NCBI GenBank assembly: GCA_002633085.1
Contig: NSIV01000002.1
Location: forward strand, 105,602-169,601
Origin: Curvibacter sp. PD_MW3
Lineage (GTDB): Bacteria; Pseudomonadota; Gammaproteobacteria; Burkholderiales; Burkholderiaceae_C
DNA length: 64,000 nt
Direction of reading: 5' to 3'
Below are positions 4,795-64,000 of the stretch, piece after piece. Below the pieces are notes generated by a model that saw only the letters and a list, made by a program, of their open reading frames with translations, ran no database searches and was not told where the DNA came from. The position numbers and the translations under genes are program-made. Positions within the stretch are counted from its first letter, which is position 1; each line of letters starts with the position of its first letter.

Positions 4795-6036
4795 ATGCAG
4801 AAATTCGATGTCGTGGTGATCGGCGCTGGCGCGGCCGGTCTGTTTTGTGCGGGTGTGGCCGGCCAGCGCGGGTGCAAAGTGCTGGTGCTGGACCACAGCC
4901 CGAAAGTGGCGGAGAAGATCCGCATCTCCGGCGGCGGGCGCTGCAACTTCACCAACCGCGACCTCGACGTGCGCGCGCCGCAAAAGCACTTCATCAGCGA
5001 CAACCCCAACTTCTGTCGCTCCGCCCTGTCGCGCTACACGCCGCAGGACTTCCTCGCCTTGCTGCAGCGCCATGGCATCCCCTTCCACGAAAAGCACAAG
5101 GGCCAGCTGTTCTGCGACCGCTCGGCCGACGACATCGTCCAGCTGCTGCTGCGCGAATGCGAGGCCGGCGGCGTCACCCGCTGGCAGCCCTGCGGCGTGA
5201 AAGCTATCCGATTTTCAGCCGCCAGCCCCGACGAAACAAGCCCTGGCAGCTATGAAATCGATAGCGATCAGGGAACGATCCAGTGCCGCGCCGTGGTGGT
5301 GGCCACCGGCGGCCTGTCGATCCCGAAGATTGGCGCCACCGACTTCGGCTACCGGGTGGCCAGGCAGTTCGGCCTGAAGCTGATCGAACCGCGCCCGGCG
5401 CTGGTGCCCCTGACCTTCGACGGCGCCGCCTGGGCACCCTACGCCGGCCTGGCCGGGCTGGCCCTCCCCGTACAAATCGAGACTGGCACGAAAAAAGAAA
5501 GAATGGCCTTTCTCGAAGACCTGCTGTTCACCCACCGGGGCCTGTCGGGCCCGGCGGTGCTGCAGATCTCCAGCTACTGGCGCACCAACACGCCGATCCG
5601 CCTGAACCTGGCGCCCGAACAGGACTTGCTGCAGTTCCTGCAGCAGGCCAAGGCGCGTTCGCGCAAGCTGATCGCCAACGAACTCGCCACTCAGTTGCCC
5701 AGCCGCCTGGCCGAAGCCTGGGTGCAGCAGGACGCCGCCTGGCAGCGCCCGGTGAACGAAGCGAGCGACAAGGCACTGGCCGCACTGGCCACCCGCCTCT
5801 CGGCCTGGGAACTCACCCCCACCGGCACCGAAGGTTATGCCAAGGCCGAGGTCACCGCCGGCGGCGTGGACACGCGCGAGCTGTCCAGCCAGACCATGGA
5901 AGCGCAGAGGCAGCCCGGCCTGTACTTCATCGGCGAAGTGGTGGACGTGACCGGCTGGCTGGGGGGGTACAACTTCCAGTGGGCATGGGCTAGCGCTCAC
6001 GCCTGCGGCGTGGCGCTAGCCCAAGGGCTGAAATAG
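4795..6036 (+). CDS. HI0933/YhiN (BaiN)-family FAD-dependent oxidoreductase
   Basis: N-terminal FDVVVIGAGAAGLFCA, then RISGGGRCNFTN and a C-terminal GLYFIGEVVDVTGWLGGYNFQWAW. Confidence 0.85.
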   Translation: MQKFDVVVIGAGAAGLFCAGVAGQRGCKVLVLDHSPKVAEKIRISGGGRCNFTNRDLDVRAPQKHFISDNPNFCRSALSRYTPQDFLALLQRHGIPFHEKHKGQLFCDRSADDIVQLLLRECEAGGVTRWQPCGVKAIRFSAASPDETSPGSYEIDSDQGTIQCRAVVVATGGLSIPKIGATDFGYRVARQFGLKLIEPRPALVPLTFDGAAWAPYAGLAGLALPVQIETGTKKERMAFLEDLLFTHRGLSGPAVLQISSYWRTNTPIRLNLAPEQDLLQFLQQAKARSRKLIANELATQLPSRLAEAWVQQDAAWQRPVNEASDKALAALATRLSAWELTPTGTEGYAKAEVTAGGVDTRELSSQTMEAQRQPGLYFIGEVVDVTGWLGGYNFQWAWASAHACGVALAQGLK

Positions 6037-12071: not shown

Positions 12072-13100
12072 TCAGGCGCTTTCGCGCTCGACGATGGAAA
12101 AGCCCATGTCCACAATGCGAGGCGTCACCGGCCGTCCCTCGGCGCGAGCCATCAGCGACTGGGCGGCCAGGCGGCCGATCTCGCTGCCGTTGATGCGCAC
12201 CGTGCTCAGGGCCGGTGCCATGTCGGCCACAAAAGGCACGTCACCAAAGCCCATGACGGCCATGCGCCCGGGGATATCCACACCACGCACACGGGCCTCG
12301 GTCATTACCCCCAGCGCCAGCAGATCGGAACTGCAGAAAACGGCATCCACGGCCGGCGCCTCCTCAAGCAGCCGCGCCATGGCTTGGCGCCCGCTCTTGA
12401 GCGAGCGTGAGGCACCAACGTTGACCACATGGACTGCGCCCAGGCCATGTGCCGCCACGGCCTCAGTGAAAGCGACCGCACGACGCTGGGCGCGCTCGTC
12501 GTCGGCGCGCACCAGGGCCAGGCGTTGGTGGCCCTTGCCAATCAGGAAGCGCGCCACGGCGCGCCCGATGTCGGCGTGGGAAAACCCAATCAGCATGTCG
12601 ATCGGGGTGGGTGTCAGGTCCCAGGTCTCGACCACCGGGATGCCCGATGCCAGCAGTCGCGTGCGTCCCTGACCCGGCGGCAGGATGCCGGTCAGGAAAA
12701 TGCCGTCGGGCCGGCGCCCGATGATGGCCTCCAGCAGCAACTCCTCGCGTTCGGCCGAGTAGTCGGACTGGCCCAGCATCAACTGATAACCGGCGTTGAA
12801 GAGAGTCTCGTTCAGCGCCTCGATGGTTTCCATGAAAACCGACACCACCGTGCTCGGCACCACTGCCGCAATGAGCCGGCTGCGCGCTGAGGCCAGACCA
12901 CCAGCCATGCGGTTAGGCACGTAGCCGGTGCGCTGCACAGCGTCCTGCACCTTGCGCAGCACCTCGGCGGAGACTTGCATCGGCGTGTTGATGGCACGCG
13001 AGGCCGTGATCGGCGCCACGCCGGCCAGTTTGGCCACGTCACGCAGGGTGATGCCTCCGCTGCCGCGGCGTGAACGTTTGCTGTTTTCCTTGTCGCTCAT
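12072..13100 (-). CDS. LacI-family transcriptional regulator (glucarate/galactarate cluster)
   Basis: [25 protein letters not shown] followed by a periplasmic-binding-fold sugar domain. The start is at the internal ATG (MSDKEN); the ORF extends to 13145. Confidence 0.85.
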
Positions 13101-13197
13101 GAAAGGTGCTTGCCTGCCGTTTATGGTACCGCTATCATTCAGCATATGTCAACGGCGACGACCGTGTCGCCACAGGCCAATGATAGGAGATCCCGCC

Positions 13198-50119: not shown

Positions 50120-51262
50120 ATGGAGACAAGTCAAATTGGAGAGGTGTTTCAAGTTGCGACCAACAAGGCGCTGACTGAGACCGGCGGAGGACATAGCCAG
50201 AAGGGCGTGGATTTTCAACGCGCCTGGGCCTTGTCCCGCATGTTTGAGACAGTGGACGAAGGCGCCACCGACTTCCTGTTTCTTTTTGAGGCGATCCAAG
50301 ACGTTGCCGTCCTTGATTCACCGACCGATCCGAAGTCGATTCGGATCTATCAGGTCAAAAAGAAGGACCGCAAAGAGTGGGAATGGAGCGAGTTGACCGA
50401 GCTTCATAACCCCGCCAAGCCGAAGGCTAGGCCCAAAGATCCATCCAAGATCGGAACCAGCACCATTGGCAAGCTCTATTCGAGCGTGATCGCGTTCAAA
50501 AATCTGAAAAGCTCGGGCAGCTTTGTGTCCAATGCCGGAACCAATCTCCCCCTCTCGAATGGAGCCAACGCAGCGACATCAGTCTCCTGCGACTTATCTC
50601 AACTAAGAAGCGACCACCTAACACTTCTCGAAGAGGGATTAAAGACCCTTCATGATTCCGGCCAAACCGTTCCTAATCCGGCTCTGATCAGCATCGAGAA
50701 GGTCAGCTTGCCGCCGGACGATCCGGCAACTCACCTTAATGGCCTCGCAGTCTCCTTCCTGAGCAAACGCAGTGCAAAGCATGCAGGCCAAGCCAAAGCT
50801 CTGGTGGATGCGCTTCTCGCCCAAATCGGCCCTCTAGGCTCCAAAACAGACAGCTGTTCCTCATTTAAGGAGCTTTGCCAGCAGCGTGGATATGCTCGAT
50901 CGGACTTCATCGCCGCTTTAGGTGCTCTCGAAACCGTTCCCGATATGCAAGCTCTCCTTGACGCCTGGCTCACAAGGCTCACGCAGGAAGGTGGCATCGA
51001 CTTTATGCTTGCCACCGCAACAAGGGTGGCTGGCGGTCGCATTTTTACGCGAAACTTGATAGGCGGCGAGGATCCAGCAGTCGCGGCGCTCATCTCAGAT
51101 TGCGATCGCTGGATCGACGCCAATCCCCCCGGCTCGGATCTTTCACCCTATTTTCAAAAGGCTCGCGCTCACCTGGAGCCACTCCATCGGTCGTTCAGGA
51201 GCCCTGAACTCATCGCTCACTTTATGTTGAGGGCCATCAAAAAATGCGTGGACCTGATCTAA
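50120..51262 (+). CDS. Cap4/DUF4297-like dsDNA nuclease-domain protein (LmuA-like effector)
   Basis: N-terminal GG.SQKGVDFQRAWALSRM...DFLFLFEAIQDVAVLD...IRIYQVKKK resembles a PD-(D/E)xK Cap4-type nuclease fold. GGGAGG RBS. Low-GC patch. Confidence 0.65.
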   Translation: METSQIGEVFQVATNKALTETGGGHSQKGVDFQRAWALSRMFETVDEGATDFLFLFEAIQDVAVLDSPTDPKSIRIYQVKKKDRKEWEWSELTELHNPAKPKARPKDPSKIGTSTIGKLYSSVIAFKNLKSSGSFVSNAGTNLPLSNGANAATSVSCDLSQLRSDHLTLLEEGLKTLHDSGQTVPNPALISIEKVSLPPDDPATHLNGLAVSFLSKRSAKHAGQAKALVDALLAQIGPLGSKTDSCSSFKELCQQRGYARSDFIAALGALETVPDMQALLDAWLTRLTQEGGIDFMLATATRVAGGRIFTRNLIGGEDPAVAALISDCDRWIDANPPGSDLSPYFQKARAHLEPLHRSFRSPELIAHFMLRAIKKCVDLI

Positions 51263-51295
51263 GAAAACTGGTTCGAAGCCTCAGGACTAAATCAC

Positions 51296-52981
51296 ATGAG
51301 AAGCTTTCTCTTCGAGGATATCTGGATTCTTTCGCGCAAAGACAAGCGAGCCAGGATTGTGGACTTCAACCCCGGGAAGAACCTGATTCTCGGCAGGAAC
51401 CACACCGGCAAATCAAGCCTGATTAAAAGCCTCTTCACCACACTTGGCGCCACCCCAAGCGGCAAGCTCCAAGGCTGGAACGAGGACACCATCACGAAGG
51501 TTGGCTTCTCAGTTGACGGAATTCGATATGCGGCTCTTCACCAGGCGGGAACACGCGCTCTATTTGACGCTGAGGGGCAAACGCTAACCGTTGCTCAGAA
51601 CCAGTCGGCGTGGAGCGAGGCTTTCGCAGCGGCGACAGGGTTCAATCTTCCTTTAATCGACAAGAATTCAAAAACGGTTCTTGCCGATCCGCGATGCTTC
51701 TTCATGCCGTTCTATATCAACCAAGACGGCAGCTGGATGGCTGAATGGGACACCTTCACCGGCATTCAGCAATACAAGGCGCCCATACTCTCGATTCTTG
51801 AATATTTCACAGGCATCAAGCCTCCCGAATACTATGCCGCGAAGGCCAAAAGGGATGCCGAGCAGGTCATCATCGAAGAGCTGCGACGCGAAAAAGCCTC
51901 ACTTGAAAAGGCCCGAGAGAGGGTGAGCAAATCCCTTTCGATGTCAGGCCCCAAAGTCGACCCAAAGAACTTCGAGACTGAAATCGCTCAGCTCACCACC
52001 GAGATCAACGAGCTGAATCAAAAGCAAGAGATTCTCAGGGATCAGGCGGTCAAAGAGCGCGAACTTCTCTCCTCAATCCGCCTTCAGAACAGGCTGGCCG
52101 AGGAGGCGTTGAAAGTCTACGAGAGCGACGCGGAGTTCATCCGTTCAGAGCCTCGCGACGCCATCGTCTGTCCTGTATGCAACGCTGAGCATGAGAATTC
52201 ATTTCTTGACCTGCTCACCTATGCAGAGGATGCCCGATCGCTCAGGGACATTACCGTTCGTTTGCGTAGAGACTCGATAGAGGTCGAAGCACGACTTGCC
52301 AAGACGCAAGGGCAAATCGACGAGCTCGCGGCACATTACCGGAAGGTGTCCGAACTTCTGGGAACGCGCCGAGGCGAGATGCAGTTCACACAAGTCGTTG
52401 ACAGCTTAGGGGCAGAGCGCGCGTTTTCCGCTTTTGAGCAAGAGCGCGCGGTTCTTGAAAAGGAACTGGGCGAACGCCTTCTCACACAAGAACGTTTGTC
52501 AGAGGGCATGGAAAAGCTGACCGATCGAGCCCGATCCAAAGACATTTTGAAGACTTTTCGAGAGGCCTTTTCTTCTGCGCTGATCGCCTTGAATCTTCCC
52601 GCGAACGATACCAGCAAGGCGCGCTTGAACAGCCGCCCCAACGTTTCAGGCAGCGGGGGCCCTCGCTCGGTGCTCGCCTACTACGCCGCACTTTGGGCTG
52701 CCTGCTACGGACAGATGGGGTCATTTCAAGTGCCTCTGGTGGTTGACTCCCCGAACCAGCAGGGGCAGGACGACATCAACCTGCCTAAGATCATCCAGTT
52801 TATTTGCGAGCGGCTTCCACAGCGGGCTCAGCTCATTCTCGGCTCCGAGATTGACACCGAGCACGACTTCGACCAAAAGCACGAGCTCTCTGATCAGTAT
52901 CGACTCTTGAATAGTGCGTCGTTCGACGATGTGGAGAAGGTCTTAGGTCCTATGGCCACCTTGATGTATCTGAAAGCCTGA
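51296..52981 (+). CDS. Rad50/SMC-like ABC ATPase with a coiled coil and CxxC hook (LmuB-like)
   Basis: Walker A GRNHTGKSS near the N-terminus, about 250 aa of heptad-rich coiled coil with a central CPVCNAEH, a signature-like SGSGGPRS, and Walker B/D-loop PLVVDSPNQQGQDD. Confidence 0.7.
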   Translation: MRSFLFEDIWILSRKDKRARIVDFNPGKNLILGRNHTGKSSLIKSLFTTLGATPSGKLQGWNEDTITKVGFSVDGIRYAALHQAGTRALFDAEGQTLTVAQNQSAWSEAFAAATGFNLPLIDKNSKTVLADPRCFFMPFYINQDGSWMAEWDTFTGIQQYKAPILSILEYFTGIKPPEYYAAKAKRDAEQVIIEELRREKASLEKARERVSKSLSMSGPKVDPKNFETEIAQLTTEINELNQKQEILRDQAVKERELLSSIRLQNRLAEEALKVYESDAEFIRSEPRDAIVCPVCNAEHENSFLDLLTYAEDARSLRDITVRLRRDSIEVEARLAKTQGQIDELAAHYRKVSELLGTRRGEMQFTQVVDSLGAERAFSAFEQERAVLEKELGERLLTQERLSEGMEKLTDRARSKDILKTFREAFSSALIALNLPANDTSKARLNSRPNVSGSGGPRSVLAYYAALWAACYGQMGSFQVPLVVDSPNQQGQDDINLPKIIQFICERLPQRAQLILGSEIDTEHDFDQKHELSDQYRLLNSASFDDVEKVLGPMATLMYLKA

Positions 52982-53041: not shown

Positions 53042-53304
53042 TTGGCACGGGCAAAGTCTTGTCCGTCAACCTTCAAACCCCACCATCCACCCTTGGCGTC
53101 TTGATTCTTCAAGAAGCGGGCGCGAAGGACTTGAGCGGCAATCCACTGATTCTTGTAAATCTTATCGGCATCCATGGGCCACACTCCGCCGGGCTATACA
53201 AAGAAACGATCTTCGCTCAGGAAGTTGGCTCGAGCCAAGAGTTCTCATCCGCCCCGAGCGAACTTCGCCGAGCACCAGCCTGCGGTATCTTGGCTCGAGC
53301 CAAG
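53042..53304. repeat. Array A of the 16-bp palindrome CTTGGCTCGAGCCAAG (2 near-perfect copies plus 1 degenerate)
   Basis: GTTGGCTCGAGCCAAG at 53224-53239, CTTGGCTCGAGCCAAG at 53289-53304, and a degenerate ATTGGCACGGGCAAAG at 53042-53057 that shares the flank tcttgtccg with copy B2. Confidence 0.85.
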
Positions 53305-53422: not shown

Positions 53423-53836
53423 TTGGAAACCACAATCCCCACGCCCCAGAGCCATTTGTCAATGGCTGAGTATTGGATTCAGCTTCGCGCACTCGTGGCA
53501 GCGCGGCCATCCCTCGTGCGCGAGATGTTTCCCGACCTCGAAGCCGATCGCCTGACCGAGCTTCAGGAGCGCGACCAAGAGCTGGGGGAGATCGCCAAAA
53601 GCAGAGGGCTTACGATGTTTGCCCCTGCTCGGCGAGCTGTATTGCAGCAGCGGGATCCCTGCGTCGAGTCGGGAATGATCTACTCGTTTTTCGACTCCGA
53701 AGACGGTGAACTCATCGCTGAGATCACGGGCTATTCCAGAGCTTTTATTTGGCTCTACAAAGAGGCGCAGGCCATAGTTTTGCAGCGGCACGTCCTAGTC
53801 CATCACGAGGCTAGGGACGCTGATTTCCGACTTTGA
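53423..53836 (+). CDS. Hypothetical protein
   Basis: 137-aa ORF downstream of palindrome array A. No recognised motif; the start is uncertain (alternative MAEYWIQ). Confidence 0.4.
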   Translation: METTIPTPQSHLSMAEYWIQLRALVAARPSLVREMFPDLEADRLTELQERDQELGEIAKSRGLTMFAPARRAVLQQRDPCVESGMIYSFFDSEDGELIAEITGYSRAFIWLYKEAQAIVLQRHVLVHHEARDADFRL

Positions 53837-54416
53837 ACTCCTGACGAATCTCATCACGATCTTTCCACTGCCGAATCAAGTCTGCGACGTGCTCCCCACA
53901 AAGCCGCTTGACATGATCGTAACCCGGGACGCCGAATAGATGCATCAGACGTCTCTCGGCTGCTGCTGGTCCGAAGAATTCAAAGTAGCGGCCTAGCGCG
54001 TTTTCGATTAAACCCTTGACTCTGTCTGTCAATTGGGGTTCGCCGAGGCTGATGCTAGTGTTCCATTCGTAGAGACTTTCCTCGAAATCGAGCAGGATAC
54101 GGATCCTCCACAGAGAATCAGAAGGCTCCGTGTGAGCGAATTCCACAGCGCCTCGCCAGAGATCTTCAAAGCATTCCGTAGCTCCTATTTGCGCACACAC
54201 AGTCAGTAGAGACAACGGCGTTCCATCGTTCTCCACGCCCCAAGTCGCAACTCGGGAGATATGCCCGTCGGGAAGTTTGCCCCGGGTTTGGGCTAGTTTC
54301 TTCAGCTCGTCCAAAAACGCCAAATGATCAGCAATCGCCAGATCAAATTCGCGGCGCGATATCACTATCACATCCGGGAGCGAACGGAGACGTGCAGCTT
54401 CTTCTAGATTTTCCAT
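53811..54416 (-). CDS. Hypothetical protein
   Basis: About 201 aa from the internal ATG (MENLEEAARL); the ORF extends to 54473. Its upstream region contains palindrome array B. No recognised motif. Confidence 0.45.
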   Translation of the reverse strand: MENLEEAARLRSLPDVIVISRREFDLAIADHLAFLDELKKLAQTRGKLPDGHISRVATWGVENDGTPLSLLTVCAQIGATECFEDLWRGAVEFAHTEPSDSLWRIRILLDFEESLYEWNTSISLGEPQLTDRVKGLIENALGRYFEFFGPAAAERRLMHLFGVPGYDHVKRLCGEHVADLIRQWKDRDEIRQEFKVGNQRP

Positions 54417-54475
54417 ATCATTAGATTGTCGGCCATTTGTCGTGGGTTGCACTCGCGGCTTGAGGTTGAGCAAGT

Positions 54476-54558
54476 CTTGGCTCGAGCCAAGAGTTGCTAT
54501 TCAGCACGGGCACGCGTCGGCTGAACAGTCGCCCCGCGGAAACTTGGCTCGAGCCAAG
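54476..54558. repeat. Array B of the 16-bp palindrome CTTGGCTCGAGCCAAG (2 perfect copies)
   Basis: Copies at 54476-54491 and 54543-54558, 67 bp start to start, in the divergent intergenic region. Confidence 0.9.
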
Positions 54559-54623
54559 TCTTGTCCGCCGGCCTTTACGGCTCCAGTAATTAAACTGGCT
54601 GGGGGCCGAAGCAGGAAGCTGCG

Positions 54624-55025
54624 ATGCGGTCGGCTACGGTGAAGGATTTCGAGGCCGTCATCAGGGACGCCGAAGTGGAGGACCTCCGGATTTTTCTCGG
54701 CCGGTTCATGGAGATGTGCGTCCAGCCCGGCGCCAATTCAGCCCACTTTGGAAACGCGACCAACGTCTTCATAGACGCGTGCAAAAACATCTACAACGAC
54801 CCGTCGGTGCCGCGCCTGGTGAAGCTTATCGAGTCGCTGTTCAAGAACGCGAAGCTTGAAAGTCGTCTGTCTCCTCCTGTGCCGGCGCAACCGCAGCGGT
54901 GTCGCATGATGGGCTGTGGGATGCGCATGGAGCGGCCTCAACCTTTGTCGGCGGCGCGGCCTTCGCAACCATCGCGCTCATGGGCCAGTTCGCGCGTCAG
55001 GCCCGGCCCTTCAAGGACTGACTAG
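54624..55025 (+). CDS. Hypothetical protein (the C-terminal third may be a non-native read-through at a module junction)
   Basis: The first roughly 85 aa look protein-like. The last roughly 45 aa are Pro/Arg/Ser-rich and coincide with a jump to higher GC. Confidence 0.3.
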   Translation: MRSATVKDFEAVIRDAEVEDLRIFLGRFMEMCVQPGANSAHFGNATNVFIDACKNIYNDPSVPRLVKLIESLFKNAKLESRLSPPVPAQPQRCRMMGCGMRMERPQPLSAARPSQPSRSWASSRVRPGPSRTD

Positions 55026-55035
55026 TTAGACGCTT

Positions 55036-55311
55036 TCATTTGAGATACGACTTCAGCACGGACACCACCTCTTCCAGGTCGCTTTCCCGCTGAACTGGAT
55101 CGGTGGCCTCTGCGCCCAAATGATCGCGCAAATGATGTTCCAGAACCTCTGACATCAGCCCGTTGACCGCGCCACGGATGGCGGCGATCTGCTGCAAGAT
55201 CGCCGCGCAATCAACCTCCGCTTCCAACGCTTTTTCGAGCGCATCGGACTGCCCGCGAATGCGCCGCACTCGCGTGAGCAATTTGGCTTTGCCTTTGATC
55301 GTGTGCGCCAT
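55036..55311 (-). CDS. rcnR: RcnR/FrmR/CsoR-family metal-sensing repressor
   Basis: MAHTIKGKAKLLTRVRRIRGQ...EVDCAAILQQIAAIRGAVNGLM..HHL, 91 aa, divergent from rcnA. Confidence 0.85.
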   Translation of the reverse strand: MAHTIKGKAKLLTRVRRIRGQSDALEKALEAEVDCAAILQQIAAIRGAVNGLMSEVLEHHLRDHLGAEATDPVQRESDLEEVVSVLKSYLK

Positions 55312-55340
55312 GTGTCTTCTCCTGAAATTTTATGTAAGTA

Positions 55341-55355
55341 TACTGGGGTATAGTA
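55341..55355. promoter_or_regulatory. RcnR-type operator (TACT-G4-N3-AGTA)
   Basis: TACTGGGGTATAGTA in the rcnR-rcnA intergenic region. It matches the G-tract-centred inverted repeat known for E. coli RcnR. Confidence 0.6.
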
Positions 55356-55392
55356 TCAAAGCTCATCGCCACGCTCCACTTTAAGGCCGCCC

Positions 55393-56553
55393 ATGCCACC
55401 GATCGCAGAACTCATCCAGCAAGGCTCTACCAATCTGTGGGTCTTCATTCCCACCGCAATTTTGCTTGGGGCATTGCACGGCCTGGAGCCTGGGCACTCC
55501 AAGACGATGATGGCTTCGTTCATCATTGCGGTTAAGGGGTCTGTTGCCCAAGCCGCCTTGCTTGGCCTATGCGCAGCGTTTTCTCATTCGCTAATCGTGT
55601 GGGCGCTTGCCGCTGCCGCGTTGCAGTTCGGAAACGAGCTGATCGCCGAACAGGCCGAGCCCTATTTCATGCTTCTGTCCGCCGTGGTGGTGATTGGCGT
55701 GTCCATTTGGATGTTCGTGCGCACGCGTCGCGATGAAATGGCTGCAAAGGCCCGCCAACATGCGCCCCACGGAGGCAAGATCATCAACACAGGGCATGGC
55801 ATTGTGGAGCTGGAGGTGTTCGAGTCGGGAGTTCCTCCTCGTTTTCGTCTCCATGCCTATGACAACTGCATGGCCGGCAAGGGCTTCGATGACCACGATA
55901 CGGTGTCGATAGAGACCCTGCGCCCTGACGGCTCCATGCAAATGTTCGAACTCAAACCTTCTGGAATGTTCTTGGAGTCTGTCCAGGAGATTCCCGAACC
56001 CCATGAATTCGAGGCGGTTGTGCTCATGGGGCATGGCGACCACATCCATCGTTTCGAGGTCAGTTTTTCCGAGGAAGACCATGATCACGCCCATGGAGAC
56101 CACCATCATCACGGGCACCACCACCACGATGTAGCAGATGACTTGCTAGGGGGCGATGGGACGTATCAGGATGCCCATGAGCGGGCACACGCCGAAGACA
56201 TCAAGCGCCGCTTTGTTGGGCAGAAAGTTACTACGGGACAGATTGCCATGTTCGGGTTGACCGGCGGCTTGGTGCCATGCCCTGCATCGGTAACGATTCT
56301 GATGATCTGCCTGCACCTGAAGCGATTCACCCTGGGCGCGGCCATGGTGGCGAGCTTCAGCCTGGGGTTGGCGATCTCGCTTGTCAGCGTCGGGGTGATC
56401 GCCGCCTGGGGCGCGCGCCAGGTTGGCAAACGCTTTGGCAATGGCAGGTTTAGCGATCTGGCGCGCAAGATGCCCTACTTTTCCAGTGGCTTGATGGCTT
56501 TCGTTGCCGTCCTCATGGCCGTCCAGGCCTTCATACAGCTTGCGGCGGCCTAA
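55393..56553 (+). CDS. rcnA: Nickel/cobalt efflux protein RcnA (NicO family) with a His-rich loop
   Basis: LGALHGLEPGHSKTMM signature, a central loop with HDHAHGDHHHHGHHHH, and C-terminal GLVPCP. Confidence 0.9.
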   Translation: MPPIAELIQQGSTNLWVFIPTAILLGALHGLEPGHSKTMMASFIIAVKGSVAQAALLGLCAAFSHSLIVWALAAAALQFGNELIAEQAEPYFMLLSAVVVIGVSIWMFVRTRRDEMAAKARQHAPHGGKIINTGHGIVELEVFESGVPPRFRLHAYDNCMAGKGFDDHDTVSIETLRPDGSMQMFELKPSGMFLESVQEIPEPHEFEAVVLMGHGDHIHRFEVSFSEEDHDHAHGDHHHHGHHHHDVADDLLGGDGTYQDAHERAHAEDIKRRFVGQKVTTGQIAMFGLTGGLVPCPASVTILMICLHLKRFTLGAAMVASFSLGLAISLVSVGVIAAWGARQVGKRFGNGRFSDLARKMPYFSSGLMAFVAVLMAVQAFIQLAAA

Positions 56554-56574
56554 GTCTTTAGGATAAGATTAATG

Positions 56575-56691
56575 AGTCACTGGGGAGTAGCCGGCCTTCG
56601 ATAAACCGAAGGCGCTTGCGTCAACACACTTGATCCACACGATCATGGCGCAAGCGGTTTCCGACTTGGCAAGACCTTTGACCATGCAGCT
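56575..56691 (+). ncRNA. yybP-ykoY (manganese) riboswitch
   Basis: The conserved cores GGGGAGUAGC (56582-56591), GUCAACAC and UUGGCAAGACCUUUG (56666-56680) flank two internal hairpins (gccttcg/cgaaggc and gcttgcg/cgcaagc). It lies 5' of a GDT1/UPF0016 gene, a known regulated family. Confidence 0.75.
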
Positions 56692-56751
56692 TCCGGTTTG
56701 GCCGGGGAGGCGCGTGGTCAATTGTTTTTTGCCCGGCCTGGGAACTTAAAA

Positions 56752-57327
56752 ATGGAAGCTCTTTTGACTTCAATGGGTGTGGTCGCGCTGGCAGAGATCG
56801 GCGACAAGACCCAACTTCTCGCGTTCGTTCTGGCGGCGAGATTCAAGAAACCTCTCCCCATCATCGCGGCAATTCTTTGCGCGACGCTCGTCAATCATGG
56901 TCTAGCGGGAGCATTGGGCGCCTGGATCACTTCGATGCTTACCCCCGAGGTTCTTCGCTGGGTGGTGGGAATCTCGTTTCTCGGCATGGCAGTGTGGACC
57001 CTCATCCCGGACAAGATCGAAGAAGAAGAGACTCAGGTTGCGAAGCATTTGGGTGTTTTCGGAGCCACACTGGTGACCTTCTTCTTGGCGGAAATGGGCG
57101 ACAAGACGCAGATCGCGACAGTCGCCATGGCCGCGCACTTTCCAAATCCGGTGATGGTGGTGATTGGCACCACGCTGGGCATGCTGATTGCCGATGTGCC
57201 GGCGGTCTTTGTGGGTGACCGCTTCTCCAAGAAGATCCCAATGAAGCTGGTGCACTCGATCGCTGCTGCGATGTTCGCTGTGATGGGTGTTCTGGCTTTG
57301 CTGCAGGTTGACACCTGGATAAAGTAG
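56752..57327 (+). CDS. GDT1/TMEM165 (UPF0016) family cation (Mn2+/Ca2+) transporter
   Basis: Two E-x-G-D-K-[TS] repeats (AEIGDKTQLLAF and AEMGDKTQIATV). ATG at 56752. Confidence 0.85.
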   Translation: MEALLTSMGVVALAEIGDKTQLLAFVLAARFKKPLPIIAAILCATLVNHGLAGALGAWITSMLTPEVLRWVVGISFLGMAVWTLIPDKIEEEETQVAKHLGVFGATLVTFFLAEMGDKTQIATVAMAAHFPNPVMVVIGTTLGMLIADVPAVFVGDRFSKKIPMKLVHSIAAAMFAVMGVLALLQVDTWIK

Positions 57328-57338
57328 GAACGCAAACC

Positions 57339-57400
57339 TCACGCTCTCGCCATAGGCATGTCGCTCCATTAGGTCGCGTAGGCCGGCGTTCGTCGGCCGC
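57339..57400 (-). pseudogene. umuC: Short remnant of the umuC 3' end
   Basis: 57342-57396 matches 58642-58696 (the end of intact umuC) at 50 of 55 positions. The minus-strand translation ..RRTPAYAT*WSDMPMARA* compares with ..[18 protein letters not shown]. Confidence 0.8.
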
Positions 57401-57609
57401 GCCCTTGCGCCCCAAGCATCCCATTTAGACTACTGGGGGTGTCGCAGTAAGGAACACTTTGCATTTTGCTCTATACCCCTCTCCCCTTTTCAGCACGGCA
57501 TGTGATAGTCTGGACGAGTCCCAATACAGAGCACGCGAGGGCTTTGATGGCTTGCAAGACATCGTCTATCCTGCTAACTTAAACCCAACCTTTTTGAAAT
57601 GCTGCGCAA

Positions 57610-57987
57610 GTGCTAACCCGAGTGAAAAAGCCTAGCTCAAACGCTACTCCGAAAAAAAGAGCTGGCGTCTCAGTAGTAGGCGCCGGAAAGATAGGCATTG
57701 GCACACAGCAATCGCCCAAACGGACGCCACCAAGTGCCCGAGGCCCCATGCCAACGCAAGAGCCCAAGACTCGCGTAATTGTCAAGCCCGCACGTCAGCT
57801 TTCCACTGAGCCTGAGAAGAATATGAGCCGTCTGAAGCCCAACACCAAGACTGAGCAGGGACAAGCCAAGAAGACCGGCAAAGCGTCAGACGATTTCATG
57901 GCTGTGCTTTCGGAAATGGAACAAGAGATCCAAGAACGTCGGCAAGTGTTGATGTCAAAGCTTGAGGCTTCAAAAAAGAAGACATGA
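57610..57987 (+). CDS. Putative antitoxin partner of the PIN toxin (basic, low-complexity; start uncertain)
   Basis: The ORF ends in ATGA, overlapping the PIN gene start. The likely shorter product runs from the ATG at 57823 (MSRLKPN...). No recognisable DNA-binding fold. Confidence 0.4.
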   Translation: MLTRVKKPSSNATPKKRAGVSVVGAGKIGIGTQQSPKRTPPSARGPMPTQEPKTRVIVKPARQLSTEPEKNMSRLKPNTKTEQGQAKKTGKASDDFMAVLSEMEQEIQERRQVLMSKLEASKKKT

Positions 57988-58457
57988 GCAAATATCTTCT
58001 TGACACCAATACAGTGATTCACTATCTGCAAGAGCGTCGACCAGTTGTCGAACGGCTTAATGCCGCCCCTAAAGGCAGCATTCACACCAGCTCAATCGTA
58101 GTCATGGAGTTCTCAACAGGATTCGCCAAGCGTGGGAAACTAAACGGGAAAAACAAGAAAAAACTCGACGATATTTTCAAAAAATTTCCGCCGATCGATT
58201 TTGATGAATTAGACGCATACGAAACCGCGAGAACCATTGGCCGAATGGATCTTGAAAACCGTGAAGACTTGCATCGAGACATGATGATAGCCAGCCAAGC
58301 AAAGAGGCGTGGATACATCGCAGTCACAAACAACACGACGGACTTCTACAAGGCAGTCGGAACAATGGTCGAGGACTGGACAATCGACCTCTCTGCAAAG
58401 TCACCGCTTACAAAGCATAAGCCAACCATATCAGGCAAGAAGTCAAATAGAAGGTGA
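57984..58457 (+). CDS. PIN-domain ribonuclease toxin (VapC-like)
   Basis: YLLDTNTVIHYL (Asp1), VVMEF (Glu) and AVTNNTTDF (C-terminal Asp) match the PIN acidic quartet pattern. Low-GC cassette. Confidence 0.75.
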   Translation: MSKYLLDTNTVIHYLQERRPVVERLNAAPKGSIHTSSIVVMEFSTGFAKRGKLNGKNKKKLDDIFKKFPPIDFDELDAYETARTIGRMDLENREDLHRDMMIASQAKRRGYIAVTNNTTDFYKAVGTMVEDWTIDLSAKSPLTKHKPTISGKKSNRR

Positions 58458-58638
58458 TAGGCCTGTAACTCTCCTTCCCATTGCGATCCCCAGAAAGACT
58501 CACCTTGGGCCTTTGTAGTCCAATCCAAATGCAGTTCATCTAGCTGGACTCACGCATATCAAGGAACGGGCGACTATGCCAGAACTCCATCCCTTTGATG
58601 CACGTTCATATTGAGCGGCGGGAGGCCACACATGGCGA

Positions 58639-59970
58639 CTACGCTCTCGCCACTGGCATGTCGCTCCATTCGGTTGTGTAGGCCGGCGTTCGTCGGTCTT
58701 GGCGCATCGACCAGTCCCGCGGGGCCTCTCCCACTTTCGCGCTGCCGACCTTGACGGTGCCCTTGCCCCATCGGCCGTTGACGGCGTCGAGAGCTATCAT
58801 GAGTCGCCCTCGAACGATCTCATTTGCAGTGTCGTCGCCGCCCAAGTCGAGCTCCAACTGCTCGAGGCTTGAAGGCTGGATGTCCATCAACATCACACCC
58901 GCCTTCGCCAGGCGAAAGCCCGGCTTGTAGATGGCCCGAAGGCCAAGCAAAGCCGCGCCGACGATGGCGGAGGTGTCGGAGCTGGGCCCGCGCATAGGAA
59001 CGACCATGGAACGCGAATATTGCGGATCCTTGCGGAATGGACTGGTGCGGATGAAGACCAGAACCTCGGACGCCACGCTGCCCTGGGCTCGCAACTTTTC
59101 GGCCGCTCGCGAGGCGAACTCTGAGACGGCCTCCGACAATGGCGCGAGGGCTTCGACAGGGCGTCCGAACGAGCGCGTGCATGCGATCTGCTTCTTGGGC
59201 TCGGGATTGTCTTCAAGACCCACGCAAGGCACGCCTTGCAACTCCCTCACTGTCCGCTCGAGAACCACGGACCATCGACGCTTGGCCACGGCCGGGTCCA
59301 TGCGGGCGAGGTCCCAAGCGGTGCGCACGCCCGCCTCCGTCAACGCCGCGCCGATCTTGCGACCGACGCCCCACACCTCGCCGACTTCGGTGGCGGAGAG
59401 CAAAGCCTCGAACTCCTCGGAGCTGGCCCTGGACAGGTCGCACACCTGAGAGTGAACCTCCGGGTAGCTGCCGGGCTTGCGCTCGGCCGTCTTGGCGATG
59501 TGATTGGCAAGCTTGGCCAGCGTCTTTGTCCGCGCGATGCCCACACCGCACGGGATGCCCACCCAGCGATGGATTCGAGAGCGGATCGCGAGGGCCCGCA
59601 CCTTCAAGTCGCCCCGCACCCCGTCGAGCCCGATGAAGCTTTCGTCGATGCTGTAAATCTCTTGGGTGGGACCCAGTCCCGCCGCCAGGCTCATCATGCG
59701 ATCGGACATATCGCCGTAGAGCGCGAAATTGGCCGACAGAGCCACCAGGCCCACCTCGTCTTCGAGATGCCGGATCTGATGCCAGGGATGGCCCATCTTG
59801 ACGCCAAGAGCCTTGGCTTCGTTGGACCTCGCGATCGCGCACCCGTCGTTATTTGAAAGCACCACCACGGGAACGCCCTCGAGCGAGGGGCGGAAGACCC
59901 GCTCGCAGGAGACATAGAAGTTGTTGCCATCGACAAGCGCGAACACGAATGCACCTCGATCATTCAACAC
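58639..59970 (-). CDS. umuC: Translesion DNA polymerase V catalytic subunit UmuC (Y-family)
   Basis: [25 protein letters not shown] and SIDESF Y-family motifs, 443 aa. It overlaps the umuD stop. Confidence 0.9.
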
Positions 59971-60413
59971 GGCATCGACTTGATCGCGTGCAGCACCACG
60001 CCCCAGACTTCAATCGTCTGCCCCTCCTTCGGCACGATGTCGGGAAATCCGGGGTTGGCGGCTTTGAGCTTCATGCGGCCTGCCCGCATCGCCAGCGTCT
60101 TGCAAACGAACTCGCCGTCCACCACCGCGATCACCACATGACTGCTTCGGGGACGAATCGCCCGATCCACGACCAGGACGTCGCCATCGAAGATGCCGGC
60201 ATCCCTCATGGAGTCGCCTCGCGCGCGCAGGAGAAACGTCGCCTGCGGATGCTTCACGAGCTGAGCGGTCAAGTCGACTCGCTTCGCGCCGAGGTCCTCC
60301 GCTGGGGATGGAAAGCCCGCTCGCACCGTCGCCATGAGGTCGAGCACATGCAGCGGCAGGCTCGCCGCGAGCATGGGCTTATCGCATGTGACGGAGGCTA
60401 AAATACTGGACAT
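59964..60413 (-). CDS. umuD: UmuD (LexA-like S24 self-cleaving peptidase)
   Basis: GFPSPAED, a Ser (GDSM) and a Lys nucleophile pair, 149 aa. The ATG lies inside the IS target-site duplication. Confidence 0.9.
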
Positions 60414-60417
60414 AATC
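60404..60417 (-). promoter_or_regulatory. Distal half of the split LexA (SOS) box: CCAGTA arm plus spacer copy
   Basis: The minus strand reads GATTATGT-CCAGTA. Together with 61503-61516 it reconstructs TACTGT-GATTATGT-CCAGTA, against the consensus TACTGT-N8-ACAGTA. Confidence 0.7.
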
Positions 60418-61502
60418 GGCTCTGTTCGCGCTACGTGTTGATGATCTGTTTGCCCAGGGCGGTCACGATAAAGTCCTCCGCCTTGGCGTCATCCTTGAAC
60501 CATTCCTTCATCCGCATCCACGCCAGGTAGTTCGGCAGGTGCTTGGTCGAGACGCCCCTGAGGTCGCCATTGAGCCAAGTTTTCAGGCGCTCGTGGTAGT
60601 TGTTGACCGACTGCACGTGGGCGGCGCCGTAGGGCGTCATCTTGACCGGGCCTTCGTAGGCGACCGCGACCGACACCGTCTTGATGCCGAGGTCCTTCTC
60701 GACGGTCCTGAACGCCCCCGAGCCATCGACGAAGAGCGTGGCCCCCTTGCCCGCGATCTGCGCGGCCACGGGCATGGCGAGTTTCTGAGTCATGTCAGGC
60801 AGCACGCGGTCGGCCACGTAGGGAGCGCCGCGCGTCTTCATGACCAGCACCGCGACCTTCTTGACGACGGCTTTCTTTCCTGAGGCCTTCTTGCCCATCG
60901 CGGCCCCGCCACGCTTGCGGGCGGGGCGGCCGAGGGAGCGGCTGCCCTTGCCGCTCTCGCGGAAATAGGTCTCGTCGGCCTCGATCACGCCGGGGCGGGC
61001 TCGGGCTTGGTGATGGACGGCGTCCTCGAGGAAGCGGTGCCGCCAACGGAAGGAGGTGCTCGGGGAGATGCCCATCTTCTTGGCGGCGGCCCTGACCGTC
61101 AGCCCTTGGATCATGCAGTCGGCGAACTCGGCCAAGCGGCCCTTGTTGCGCAGGCCGGAGATGGGCGTGTCGGTCGCATGCGAGAAGGTCTTGCGGCAGA
61201 CCCGGCAGGCGTAGCGTTGCAGGCCTCGGGCGTGTCCATTCTTGACCGAGTCGGAGAAGCCGCAACGGGGGCAGATCGGCTCGGCCCGGAGGCTGTGGAT
61301 CGCGTCGTGGGAGCGGATGGAGTAGCGCAGCTCGCGGCACCTGAGCTCGACCTTTTGGAGCTGGCCGGGGTCCAAGGATTGGAGCCGTTCGAATAGCTGG
61401 TTAAAATCCCATGGCTGGTCGGATTTACAGTCTTCCATCGCAGGCTCTTTCGTGCTAACGAATAAATGAATACTCGAATCAACACGCTATGATAACAGAG
61501 CC
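60418..61502 (-). mobile_element. IS1595-family insertion sequence (1,085 bp) with 8-bp target-site duplication ACATAATC
   Basis: Terminal inverted repeats GGCTCTGTTcgcgctaCGTGTTGAT (left) and GGCTCTGTTatcatagCGTGTTGAT (right, reverse complement). Identical 8-mers sit at 60410-60417 and 61503-61510. It contains a single transposase ORF. Confidence 0.85.
60431..61438 (-). CDS. IS1595-family (ISXO2-like DDE) transposase with an N-terminal zinc ribbon
   Basis: CPRCG...YACRVCRKTF zinc ribbon, an HTH (LTVRAAAKKMGISPSTSFRWRHRF), then a DDE domain (IEADETYF...VDGSGAF...N.HERLK). Confidence 0.85.
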   Translation of the reverse strand: MEDCKSDQPWDFNQLFERLQSLDPGQLQKVELRCRELRYSIRSHDAIHSLRAEPICPRCGFSDSVKNGHARGLQRYACRVCRKTFSHATDTPISGLRNKGRLAEFADCMIQGLTVRAAAKKMGISPSTSFRWRHRFLEDAVHHQARARPGVIEADETYFRESGKGSRSLGRPARKRGGAAMGKKASGKKAVVKKVAVLVMKTRGAPYVADRVLPDMTQKLAMPVAAQIAGKGATLFVDGSGAFRTVEKDLGIKTVSVAVAYEGPVKMTPYGAAHVQSVNNYHERLKTWLNGDLRGVSTKHLPNYLAWMRMKEWFKDDAKAEDFIVTALGKQIINT

Positions 61503-61516
61503 ACATAATCACAGTA
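61503..61516 (-). promoter_or_regulatory. Proximal half of the split LexA (SOS) box: TACTGT arm plus spacer copy
   Basis: The minus strand reads TACTGT-GATTATGT directly abutting the IS right end. Confidence 0.7.
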
Positions 61517-61600
61517 TATCGATTCAGCGGGCCAGACGACCGCTTTTCATCTTTTCAACGGTTTGGCCGAACGGCTCGATCCACTCGTTACGATCCATCC

Positions 61601-62266
61601 ATGTGCGCGCATTACGAAGGCGTCAAAGACCCTAAAACCTACGCTGAGCGTTATTCGTCAGCTCCACCGTCCGAGGCTGGCAAGGTCGATCTGTGGCCAG
61701 GCTATTTGGGCTCGTTCATCCGCAGGCATCCTCACGCCGATGTGGGAGACGAGGCCGTGCCTGAGCGAGAAGCTCTCCTTGGGTCCTTCGGATTGATCCC
61801 CCACTGGGCGACCGACGCCAAACTAGCTCGCAACACCTACAACGCCCGCAGCGAGACTGCCGCTTCGAAGCCGAGCTTTCGCGATGCGTGGAAGAAGGCT
61901 CGGCACTGCATCATCCCGGCCCAAGCGATTTACGAGCCTGACTGGCGCAGCGGCAAAGCTGTTTCCACCCGCATTGAACGCAGCGATGGAGCGCCCATGG
62001 GCATCGCTGGCCTTTGGGACTCGTGGAAGCAGCCCGATGGAACCTGGCTGAACAGCTACACGATGCTCACGATCAACGCCGACCATCACGAGCTGATGAA
62101 GTCCTTTCACAAGCCGACTGACGAGAAGCGAATGGTGGTGATCCTTCCCGAGGCAGCCTACGGCGATTGGCTGGCGGCGTCCGCCTCGGACAGCATGGAC
62201 TTCATGCAGCCCTATCCCGCCGATCGGCTCACGGTCCACGCGACGGCAGCCCAAGGACTGTTTTGA
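61601..62266 (+). CDS. SOS response-associated peptidase (SRAP/YedK-like abasic-site processing protein)
   Basis: It starts MCAHY (catalytic Cys2) and has the family motifs NARSET, PA..YEP and MLT.NA. Confidence 0.85.
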   Translation: MCAHYEGVKDPKTYAERYSSAPPSEAGKVDLWPGYLGSFIRRHPHADVGDEAVPEREALLGSFGLIPHWATDAKLARNTYNARSETAASKPSFRDAWKKARHCIIPAQAIYEPDWRSGKAVSTRIERSDGAPMGIAGLWDSWKQPDGTWLNSYTMLTINADHHELMKSFHKPTDEKRMVVILPEAAYGDWLAASASDSMDFMQPYPADRLTVHATAAQGLF

Positions 62267-62389
62267 GAACGGCGAGACCAGGCTTGGCCGCCCTGGCGAA
62301 AACTCTCACCGCAACCGGCGAAGGCAACAGCTAGCTCGACCCGGGCCGCTTCAAAGACTGTTCTGGTTGCGCCCTGCCACAATCTACTT

Positions 62390-62710
62390 ATGGCCCAGTT
62401 CTTCTATAAACTTTTTACAAGGTTCTTGAAAAACCTCGCAGCACTTAAAACCTGGTGGATAGGGCAGTTGATGCGCGCATCGGTTCCGGAGACATTTGCA
62501 CTGTGTCTCATGTTCCTCACCACAATGGCAGTCTATGAGTATTGGGGCAAGCCGCTTTTAGTCGTTTTGTGCGTCGTCATCGGAAACACTCTAGTGCAAA
62601 TGTCCATCGACTATTTTCCAAGCAACATCAAACCTGGCTTCGCTGCTATTTCTCGACTAGTTCCTGCAATTGCTGCGGTTATCGCTTATTTGCTTTCAAG
62701 AACGGCATAG
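62390..62710 (+). CDS. Hypothetical small membrane protein
   Basis: 106 aa with 3 predicted hydrophobic helices, in a low-GC patch. Confidence 0.4.
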   Translation: MAQFFYKLFTRFLKNLAALKTWWIGQLMRASVPETFALCLMFLTTMAVYEYWGKPLLVVLCVVIGNTLVQMSIDYFPSNIKPGFAAISRLVPAIAAVIAYLLSRTA

Positions 62711-62998
62711 ATAAGAGTCGAAATTAAAAGCATTGCGATAGCGATGTTTATGTAGAACGCGTCTCGCTCAGAAGCGGCCGTTTGTCTCAGCGCCTCCGCT
62801 TCATCTGCCTGAGTAATGTTAGATCCTTTCGTCAGTTTACCCATAGCGCGCTCCCGCTGGCGTTGTTGGTAACCTTTTCATCCATCCCATTGCCAAAGTC
62901 AATCCAAAAAGGCTTTTCTGTTGGCGGACATGAAAGTGCCCAGAGTAAGAGCAGCTTCGGATTCATCCTTCGCTCCACGTCATATCGACCAAGCTTAT

Positions 62999-63258
62999 CT
63001 TGGCTCGAGCCAAGAATTGCGATCCGCCTTGTTCTCGCGTCTGCCAATTCCCCGCCCGTCGGAATCTTGGCACGAGCCAAGATTGTTGACCTCGTCCGAT
63101 CGACAAAGGCAAACTCTCCCCAAGCTTGGCTCGAGCCAAGAACGGTGCTTTGTCCGGCGGGCATGCCAACCTGTCGGAATCTTGGCTCGAGCCAAGATCA
63201 TTGAACCCGTCCCATAGACAAGGATAGGCGCTGCCACCCAACCTTGGCTCGAGCCAAG
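62999..63258. repeat. Array C of the 16-bp palindrome CTTGGCTCGAGCCAAG (5 copies)
   Basis: Copies start at 62999, 63066 (one mismatch, CTTGGCACGAGCCAAG), 63125, 63181 and 63243. Spacers are 40-51 bp and non-identical. The array ends 66 bp before the ATG at 63325. Confidence 0.9.
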
Positions 63259-63324
63259 ATCGGCGGCACGCAGCAATTCCTTCGGCTTGAGCAATACTGA
63301 TGGCAATAACCAGAGAGGAAAAAA

Positions 63325-64000
63325 ATGACCCAACAAAGCGGAGCAGCGCAACTTTTGGAGGCCGTCATGTTCGCGGCGGAGCGGCACCGAAACCAACGCC
63401 GCAAGGACGCCGAGGCCTCGCCATACATCAACCACCCGATCGCTCTGGCGCATCTATTGGCGACGACAGGTGGAATCGAAGACGTCGATGTCTTGCGCGC
63501 AGCCATCCTGCACGACACCGTGGAGGACACCGAAACCACTGAGAACGAGCTGCGCGAACGATTTGGAAACGCGGTGGCGGGGATCGTCATGGAGGTCACA
63601 GACGACAAGTCGCTGCCCAAGCAACGGCGCAAGGAGCTGCAAATCGAACATGCTCCTCACAAGAGCCGCGGCGCGGCCCTGGTGAAGCTCGCCGACAAGA
63701 CCTGCAATCTGCGCGACATCGCGGCGACCCCGCCGGCTGATTGGCCGCTCGCTCGCAGACAGGCTTATTTCGATTGGGCAAAGAGCGTAGTCGACGCTCT
63801 ACCTCCCGTCAGCGAACCGCTACGGAAGGCGTTCGATGAGGCCTATGCCAAGTGCCCTGCCGCGCAAAATTCAGACCCGACCGCCCGTGAGGGCCACTGG
63901 TTGAGCATGCCGGGCGTCCTTCGCGGGACGTCGGGATTCGTCCGCGTTCTCGATTCGGGCGCGATCGAGATCGAGCTCTACGACCATAGCGCCGCAGCGG
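63325..64000 (+). CDS. HD-domain (p)ppGpp/alarmone pyrophosphohydrolase-like protein (small alarmone hydrolase type) with an extra C-terminal region; 3' end outside the window
   Basis: My translation from the ATG at 63325, preceded by GAGAGGAA, reads MTQQSGAAQLLEAVMFAAERHRNQRRKD..PYINHPIALAHLL...AAILHDTVEDT...KLADKTCNLRD. The frame stays open to the window end. This ORF is absent from the supplied ORF track, presumably because no stop codon occurs before the window end. Confidence 0.75.
   Translation, partial: MTQQSGAAQLLEAVMFAAERHRNQRRKDAEASPYINHPIALAHLLATTGGIEDVDVLRAAILHDTVEDTETTENELRERFGNAVAGIVMEVTDDKSLPKQRRKELQIEHAPHKSRGAALVKLADKTCNLRDIAATPPADWPLARRQAYFDWAKSVVDALPPVSEPLRKAFDEAYAKCPAAQNSDPTAREGHWLSMPGVLRGTSGFVRVLDSGAIEIELYDHSAAA

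Follow-up and report, generated by a model that had tools for sequence, protein, structure and literature searches.

A 16-bp palindrome, CTTGGCTCGAGCCAAG, that recurs in an island of a Curvibacter genome is the known parS sequence of the pBC-type (Bsr) partition family, and it is only the arrangement of the sites that is new. Here parS has been amplified, dispersed and detached from any visible parAB, and it is set among defence and cargo genes. The sites were analysed in a stretch of 64,000 nucleotides, referred to below as the window, and in about 10 kb that follow it. We consider it likely that the palindromes of the window are parS sites of the ParB-pBC type.

Thirteen copies of the palindrome lie in four clusters

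Searching the window with CTTGGCTCGAGCCAAG gave nine matches with up to two mismatches, against 0.03 expected from shuffles, and no extra match was gained when three mismatches were allowed. Five of these matches form an array at 62999..63258, between the minus-strand gene for a 52-aa membrane protein and a gene of the HD family. The copies at 62999, 63125, 63181 and 63243 are perfect, and the copy at 63066, CTTGGCACGAGCCAAG, carries a single mismatch, T7A, in one arm only. Start-to-start distances are 67, 59, 56 and 62 bp, the spacers are 51, 43, 40 and 46 bp long, and 66 bp separate the end of the last site from the HD-gene ATG at 63325. This array had been picked out in the original prediction, whose four perfect copies and one with a single mismatch, together with their start positions, were reproduced by the motif search; the spacings, the spacer lengths and the distance to the ATG are all as claimed there.

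Two further clusters contain two copies each. The cluster at 53224..53304 is directly 3' of the Lamassu gene lmuB and 5' of a 124-aa ORF; its copy at 53224 begins GTTGGC and has one mismatch, C1G, again in one arm only, and its other copy is at 53289. The cluster at 54476..54558 (copies at 54476 and 54543) occupies the divergent gap between a 220-aa ORF on the minus strand and a 133-aa ORF on the plus strand, the ATG of which (54624) is 66 bp beyond the last copy.

The region past the window end was read on Logan contig SRR8040758_173 (L001), which is identical to the window across a 12.4-kb overlap and extends further. It carries an array of four copies, all perfect, at window-equivalent positions 64310, 64376, 64437 and 64593 (to 64608), directly downstream of the HD gene (stop at 64221) and ~390 bp upstream of sspB, so that the HD gene is flanked by arrays of five and four copies. 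The DNA that could be read (window plus ~10 kb, 74 kb in all) contains 13 copies, grouped as 2, 2, 5 and 4 in four clusters that together span 11.4 kb; the other ~62 kb is free of the motif. It had been predicted that the 16-mer recurs only at 53.0-53.3 and 54.5 kb besides the five-copy array, which is correct within the window and has to be amended by the four copies past its end. The motif is indeed missing from the core genome part, with no copy in 28 kb, and its confinement to 11.4 kb of the 74 kb visible favours a motif restricted to the island over a scattered REP element.

The palindrome is identical to parS of plasmid pBC

The perfect palindrome is present in 11 of the 13 copies, and these are letter for letter the wild-type parS of pBC, probe S38wt, CttggctcgagccaaG (Pillet et al. 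2017, PMC5450999, S1 File Fig C); CttggctcgagccaaG and the window 16-mer CTTGGCTCGAGCCAAG are exactly the same. pBC is a plasmid (p1) of Burkholderia cenocepacia J2315, and the Bsr families are partition systems of Burkholderiales (PMC5450999). The S38wt probe gave a binding score of 43 +/- 4 with ParB-pBC and of 4 without ParB, data obtained with the Burkholderia protein and hence with that of another host than Curvibacter (PMC5450999). The parS sites of Bsr systems are palindromes of 16 bp that have CG at their centre and a 6-bp core made up of 2C, 2G, 1A and 1T (PMC5450999), and the window core CTCGAG conforms to this definition. In systems of B. cenocepacia and E. coli, a site of identical sequence is reported to confer ParAB-dependent stabilisation or incompatibility (PMC4948915). 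A literature search with the 14-mer core string returned only unrelated eukaryotic shRNA or primer sequences.

The novelty that the original prediction implied for the motif does not hold, since the sequence has reportedly been public since 2006; pBC parS and the Bsr ParABS systems are said to have been treated by Dubarry et al. in 2006 and by Passot et al. in 2012.

The tolerance of ParB-pBC for altered sites is described by its SPRi scores, which were 38 for the G1 probe, 30 for T7G and 38 with one arm randomised, and 34, 21 and 13 (unbound) for probes with a CCGG, GCGC or ACGT centre, respectively; changes at positions 2-4 or in the central CG abolished binding to background level (PMC5450999). 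The C1G variant at 53224 corresponds to the G1 probe, which ParB-pBC binds with a score of 38. The T7A variant at 63066 is altered in one arm, at a position tolerant of other substitutions, and may also be bound; the symmetric ACGT centre, with its score of 13, is not. Natural variation follows the same pattern. When 59 sites were pooled from ten loci, the window contig and L012 among them, 29 of the 31 mismatches were found to fall at positions 1/16 (14) and 7/10 (15), with one at 2/15, one at 8/9 and none at 3-6/11-14; we give counts instead of a probability because the 59 sites are not all independent. The natural variants are therefore restricted to positions that ParB tolerates, in agreement with the SPRi data.

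Related par loci carry the sites beside parA and parB

A search of 185,579 species-representative genomes and of the JGI metagenome contigs for exact pairs of CTTGGCTCGAGCCAAG with a gap of 35-65 gave no match, and the single 16-mer had two isolated matches in viral contigs, which is chance level. Relatives were found by a looser metagenome scan for CTTGGC-N4-GCCAAG pairs, in which the true relatives carry CTTGGC[T/G]CG[A/C/G]GCCAAG. Matches to TTGGC-N4-GCCAA pairs in genomes were rejected as coincidental look-alikes, being mostly Bacteroidota repeats, 99-bp tandem repeats of Bdellovibrionota and Microbacterium operators. The 99-bp repeats lie on both sides of a tRNA gene cluster in a Bdellovibrionota metagenome-assembled genome (L052, 1-1250), and their unit holds a longer palindrome built around CTTGGCGCGAGCCAAG; as there is no par gene nearby, they are probably an unrelated repeat family.

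Ten par loci were compared, namely pBC, L190, L147, L150, L175, L201, L202, L203 (a near-duplicate of L202), L204 and L205. The 16-mer, with up to two mismatches, is found upstream of parA in all ten, in 1-5 copies each, and one copy is located inside parB, 138-162 bp from its start, in nine of them (not L175). The intragenic sites are at 810 in pBCJ2315, 5628 in L190, 2857 in L147, 598 in L150, 1387 in L201, 10148 in L202, 2456 in L203, 10151 in L204 and 10148 in L205, a placement that is kept across hosts of 43% to 61% G+C. Upstream of parA, pBCJ2315 has sites at 92285, 92385, 92438 and 92505, the last with two mismatches. In L190, L147, L150 and L175 the sites lie 60-230 bp upstream of a gene for a 223-aa CbiA/ParA ATPase, which is followed by a ~320-aa gene with ParB_N and HTH_ParB domains. 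The other five metagenome and genome loci (L201 to L205) likewise have a CbiA-type parA and, after it, a parB with these two domains. A Rep3 initiator is encoded near the L190 par locus, and a KfrA-like gene and a DUF3701 integrase are found near that of L175. The ParB proteins of the par loci are 62-100% identical to L190 ParB (L175 about 70% by eye), which is itself about 80-98% identical to ParB of Burkholderia cepacia complex plasmids, including that of B. cenocepacia J2315, and contains a motif, GETRLRGARAAG, resembling the ParB CTP-binding box. A further ParB relative, P0319, had occurrences in other samples only and none in the same sample, and four of the relatives used to compare par layouts are from other samples too. 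The suggestion of a sopC/parS-type centromere in the original prediction was right in kind, as the 16-mer is a characterised parS that sits upstream of parA-parB in relatives.

The arrangement in the window departs from the family norm, because canonical loci have 3-5 sites by parAB (2 in L201) and none dispersed; where sequence within +/-10 kb of the canonical par loci was available, it held no dispersed sites. The window sites number 13 against the canonical 3-5, are more tightly and regularly spaced, and bracket non-partition genes. Two loci are intermediate between the canonical arrangement and that of the window: in L175 the five upstream sites are spread over 2.2 kb with an ORF between them, whereas those of the others lie within a few hundred bp, and L192 has seven sites over 1.1 kb.

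Array units are gained and lost as a whole

The spacers had been described as unrelated to each other. They instead fall into two alternating, weakly similar classes, with a pairwise identity of 0.56-0.70 (z = 3-5 against shuffles), class A ending in ...cgtcggaat and class B containing ...tcgacaa(a)gg.... Spacers differ by 35-45%, while 11 of the 13 palindromes remain perfect. Since the spacers form two related alternating classes, the arrays would be old tandem duplications in which the spacers have decayed and the palindrome has been kept perfect. The flank 'ggaatCTTGGC..GCCAAGatcat' and the motif of the class-B spacers are both seen again in L190 and L150, between sites two and three upstream of parA, and because of this recurrence upstream of parA the arrays look derived from a canonical centromere.

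Two related contigs, L012 (ENA) and L013 (Logan), encode an identical HD protein followed by the same downstream four-copy array, and have seven copies upstream of the HD gene compared with five in the window. The differences consist of whole units of palindrome plus spacer, of 67 bp and 211 bp, with break points that fall inside the palindrome. Because the unit indels break at palindromes, boundaries of site-specific recombination cassettes were considered; they were set aside, as no recombinase is visible and the motif is accounted for by its identity to a ParB site. To the left of the array L012 and L013 have different DNA, with a nuclease-like gene fragment; in L012 a staphylococcal-nuclease-like fragment (1-303) stands where the window has small membrane ORFs. 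Similarity to the left of the first L012 palindrome is ~75% over ~50 bp and identity to its right is 96-100%, which marks a recombination junction at this palindrome.

It had been proposed that homologous loci be aligned for conserved palindromes and varying spacers, and this comparison came out in favour. Between the window and L012 there are 3 changes in 80 nt of palindrome and ~7 in 180 nt of spacer, which is about an equal rate, and all four changes among the 24 Curvibacter-type copies are at positions tolerated by ParB. The perfect copies and the restriction of changes to tolerated positions point to continued selection or homogenisation.

The sites bracket defence and cargo genes

The G+C content falls from ~65% to ~57% at ~28 kb of the window. 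The first 28 kb contain, by appearance, ordinary chromosomal metabolism and signalling genes, and from ~28 kb there follow a KAP NTPase, arsenic and sulfur genes and an ECF sigma factor. Immediately to the left of the first parS cluster is a Lamassu pair, lmuA (Cap4 nuclease) and lmuB, on the plus strand at 50120..52981 (PADLOC, LmuA 3.5e-130, LmuB 9e-230). No LmuC-like gene was recognised near this pair, and a 93-aa minus-strand ORF overlaps the end of lmuB. The two-copy clusters enclose a module of two convergent ORFs (53462..54473), of 124 aa on the plus strand and 220 aa on the minus strand, neither of which has family matches; when the 220-aa and SRAP proteins were looked for in further contexts, only the same contig came up.

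The cargo block between the second and third clusters (54624..62844; Pfam, gene calls and Rfam) comprises the 133-aa ORF, an rcnR-like repressor, NicO, a Mn riboswitch with a GDT1 transporter, a vapBC-like pair, umuDC, an IS1595-family element, SRAP and two small membrane ORFs. The riboswitch (yybP-ykoY, RF00080; 56570-56747, plus strand, 111.9 bits, E=1.9e-29) is directly upstream of the GDT1 gene (56698/56722-57327), overlapping its longest ORF call. The IS1595-family IS (60419-61501), with a minus-strand transposase of 335 aa, is inserted between umuD and the SRAP gene, and its transposase is the only one among the island genes. Its ~25-bp terminal inverted repeats, GGCTCTGTT...CGTGTTGAT, are unrelated to the palindrome, and IS or MITE ends were rejected as an account of the motif.

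The gene between the two largest arrays (63325..64221, in the window to 64000; plus strand) encodes a 298-aa HD_4 protein (RelA/SpoT-hydrolase-like; Pfam HD_4 E=5e-20) with a conserved ~120-aa C-terminal extension; in some homologues a weak DUF8140 (PF26463) match is listed ahead of HD_4. Homologues of 298 aa with 70-80% identity (L006, L007, L009) are found in other defence islands beside AbiJ, McrBC and GmrSD, and the gene may itself act in defence or counter-defence. Because these homologues lack recurrent palindromes, the motif does not belong to the HD gene family. Plasmid BLAST of 62300-64000 returned only generic HD genes. Past the window (L001 13400-20666, L011 11676-20897; window-equivalent ~65000-74200) lies an SspB/SspC/SspD phosphorothioation module, after which come a GmrSD-type (SspE-like) nuclease and an 1815-aa FtsK/DUF87-like protein that appears DptH/SspH-like by size and domain. 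With these genes the defence island continues past the window.

No parAB of the pBC family is visible near the arrays

The original prediction saw no cognate DNA-binding protein and advised a look for ParB just beyond the window. The first statement holds, also past the window end: tblastn detected no ParA or ParB of the pBC family in window 1-64000 or in the 10.2 kb beyond, and a six-frame search of the same DNA with profile HMMs of the ParA/ParB family gave a best E of 0.19. Among the 120 best ParB relatives listed, none is from a contig that matches the Curvibacter contigs in size. This absence covers the visible 74 kb of a 529-kb contig, within which the sites adjoin no parAB. The visible part of the island also contains no integrase, replication or transfer genes, and for this reason we infer, rather than observe, an integrated plasmid or ICE. 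When island proteins were compared with pBCJ2315 the only match was a PIN domain of 29% identity, so that the island is not a close derivative of pBC. If the sites are parS of the ParB-pBC type, there is roughly an even chance that a cognate parAB is located elsewhere on the same element.

In type Ia ParABS systems a ParB dimer binds each palindrome and spreads or slides from parS, and ParA positions the complex. By analogy with this family, each 16-bp palindrome, as a parS site of the pBC-type (Bsr) ParABS family, would be occupied by one ParB dimer with one helix-turn-helix per 8-bp arm. From there ParB would nucleate a more extensive complex with the DNA, probably as a CTP-dependent clamp that loads and slides, and the ParA ATPase would position it. 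As 13 sites are packed into 11.4 kb, ParB would cover all of this DNA, the HD gene and the sspBCD promoter region included. As to their origin, the arrays would have arisen by tandem amplification and dispersal of a canonical centromere unit, through unequal recombination or slippage, because spacers and flanks resemble parA-upstream DNA of related plasmids and because related contigs differ in copy number by whole units. The island would most likely be part of an integrated pBC-like plasmid or conjugative element with its parAB outside the 74 kb visible; alternatively, ParB might be supplied in trans.

Alternative explanations

If the host had no ParAB of its own, the arrays might act on ParB brought in by plasmids of the pBC family and be kept in a chromosomal defence island, either as a sponge or tether for ParB that destabilises incoming plasmids (a 'centromere decoy', with partition incompatibility serving as exclusion) or as a means for the excised island to hitch-hike on the partition machinery of a helper plasmid. 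Consistent with this are the absence of parAB from the visible DNA, the position of the sites between Lamassu, SspBCD/GmrSD and the DptH-like gene, and a number of sites well above the canonical 3-5 that varies between contigs; moreover, extra p1 (pBC) parS in trans disturbs B. cenocepacia, depleting ParB and long delaying the appearance of colonies (PMC4948915). However, only 74 kb of the 529-kb contig bear on the absence of parAB, no precedent was found for centromere decoys as defence, a single-copy chromosomal array would be a weaker competitor than the multicopy vectors of incompatibility tests, and the pattern of tolerated positions is equally expected with the element's own ParB, which leaves such orphan arrays unlikely. 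The missing parAB would also fit a plasmid that integrated and lost parAB, leaving a decaying relic in which the arrays have no present function. Palindrome changes between the window and L012 are indeed about as frequent as spacer changes, but the perfection of 11 of 13 copies beside spacers that differ by 35-45%, and the placing of four changes out of four at tolerated positions, make decay distinctly improbable. KorB-like regulation, in which ParB at the arrays or sliding from them would repress or insulate the HD gene, sspBCD and the small ORFs, is compatible with the parS explanation and not exclusive of it. Three clusters are in divergent promoter regions, two of them end 66 bp before an ATG (54558 to 54624; 63258 to 63325), the fourth is ~390 bp upstream of sspB, and the sites of canonical loci overlap the parA promoter region. 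Against such control, a scan for sigma-70-like promoters found none close to the sites (like the terminator scan, it was uninformative), HD homologues elsewhere are without sites, and 5-7 sites at ~60-bp spacing exceed what an operator needs; as the explanation of the arrays we give it quite a low probability.

Explanations that dispense with ParB fare much worse. Clustered intergenic palindromes whose copy number differs between strains recall selfish or structural repeats of the REP/BIME kind, and hairpins in a transcript are suggested by the better folding of the array as RNA than of shuffles (z = -6.25). This fold score follows automatically from repeated palindromes, any of which would give it, and the RNA hairpin put forward earlier as an alternative is left without specific evidence; no Rfam family matches the arrays, and conservation and symmetry extend to the loop bases to the same degree as to the stem, in keeping with a dimer that recognises double-stranded DNA. 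Membership of a REP/BIME family was rejected within the 74 kb read, because the palindromes are perfect and all 13 copies fall in 11.4 kb, leaving ~62 kb (28 kb of core genome and 25 kb of other island DNA among it) with no copy. The motif is fully accounted for by its identity to a proven ParB site, and we attach next to no probability to repeats or hairpins of this kind. Operators of an unrelated dimeric regulator, for instance of the LacI family, can likewise be palindromes of 16 bp centred on CG. In several Microbacterium species (L039, L059, L060, L075, L094 and L128) two copies of CTTGGCACGTGCCAAG stand 67 bp apart; genes were read for L039, where the pair (5834-5916) occupies the divergent region between a LacI-family regulator and a sugar-phosphate isomerase-like gene and is probably a LacI-type operator. 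Its arms are those of parS-pBC and its centre differs, ACGT making it a different site that is unbound by ParB-pBC. No such regulator is encoded beside any cluster, and the window has a single LacI gene (12072-13145), which lies in core DNA at a distance of 40 kb; the chance that the arrays are operators of this type is very small indeed. A CRISPR array was rejected on its repeat of 16 bp (vs 23-47), its related spacers and the absence of cas genes among the annotated ORFs.

Reading the palindromes as parS allows the region to be annotated and names the likely binding family, pBC-type ParB. The noteworthy features are that the tight, perfect arrays are detached from visible parAB, bracket defence and cargo genes, and gain and lose units. 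If parAB is present nearby, the island would be an integrated plasmid-like element with an expanded centromere. If parAB is absent from the genome, it becomes a candidate for centromere-based plasmid exclusion or hitch-hiking, testable with the Burkholderia ParABS tools.

Comparison with known systems

REP/BIME elements resemble the arrays in being intergenic and clustered, with alternating linker classes and copy numbers that differ between strains. They are imperfect, genome-wide and RAYT-linked, whereas the sites of the window are perfect palindromes that match a protein-binding site exactly and are restricted to a single stretch of 11 kb. The OB operators of KorB (IncP-1) and the SopB sites of the phage-plasmid N15 are promoter-region palindromes bound by a ParB-family protein that serves both partition and gene control. 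The window likewise has palindromes dispersed in probable promoter regions of a putative mobile element; they differ from these systems in sequence and length and flank cargo and defence genes rather than a backbone, and regulation here is putative.

sopC of plasmid F is a centromere formed by a tandem, regularly spaced array of a 16-bp palindromic SopB-binding site. The likeness to the window is that of a regular array of 16-bp palindromic ParB-type sites. sopC differs in its 43-bp units with conserved spacers, its place beside sopAB and its unrelated sequence. An arm-binding model for F ParB is cited in PMC5450999.

The closest system is pBC parS itself (Dubarry et al. 2006; Passot et al. 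2012; Pillet et al. 2017), with which the window shares the identical 16 bp, CTTGGCTCGAGCCAAG, clustering at ~50-125 bp, variation at positions 1/16 and 7/10, and AT...AT flanks. In pBC and its nine relatives the sites adjoin parAB, with 1-5 upstream of parA and one in parB (not L175). The window, in contrast, has 13 sites in four arrays over 11.4 kb, with 40-51-bp spacers and flanked by non-partition genes, in the metagenome-assembled genome of a Curvibacter (Comamonadaceae) host, where they occupy what is apparently a chromosomal island.
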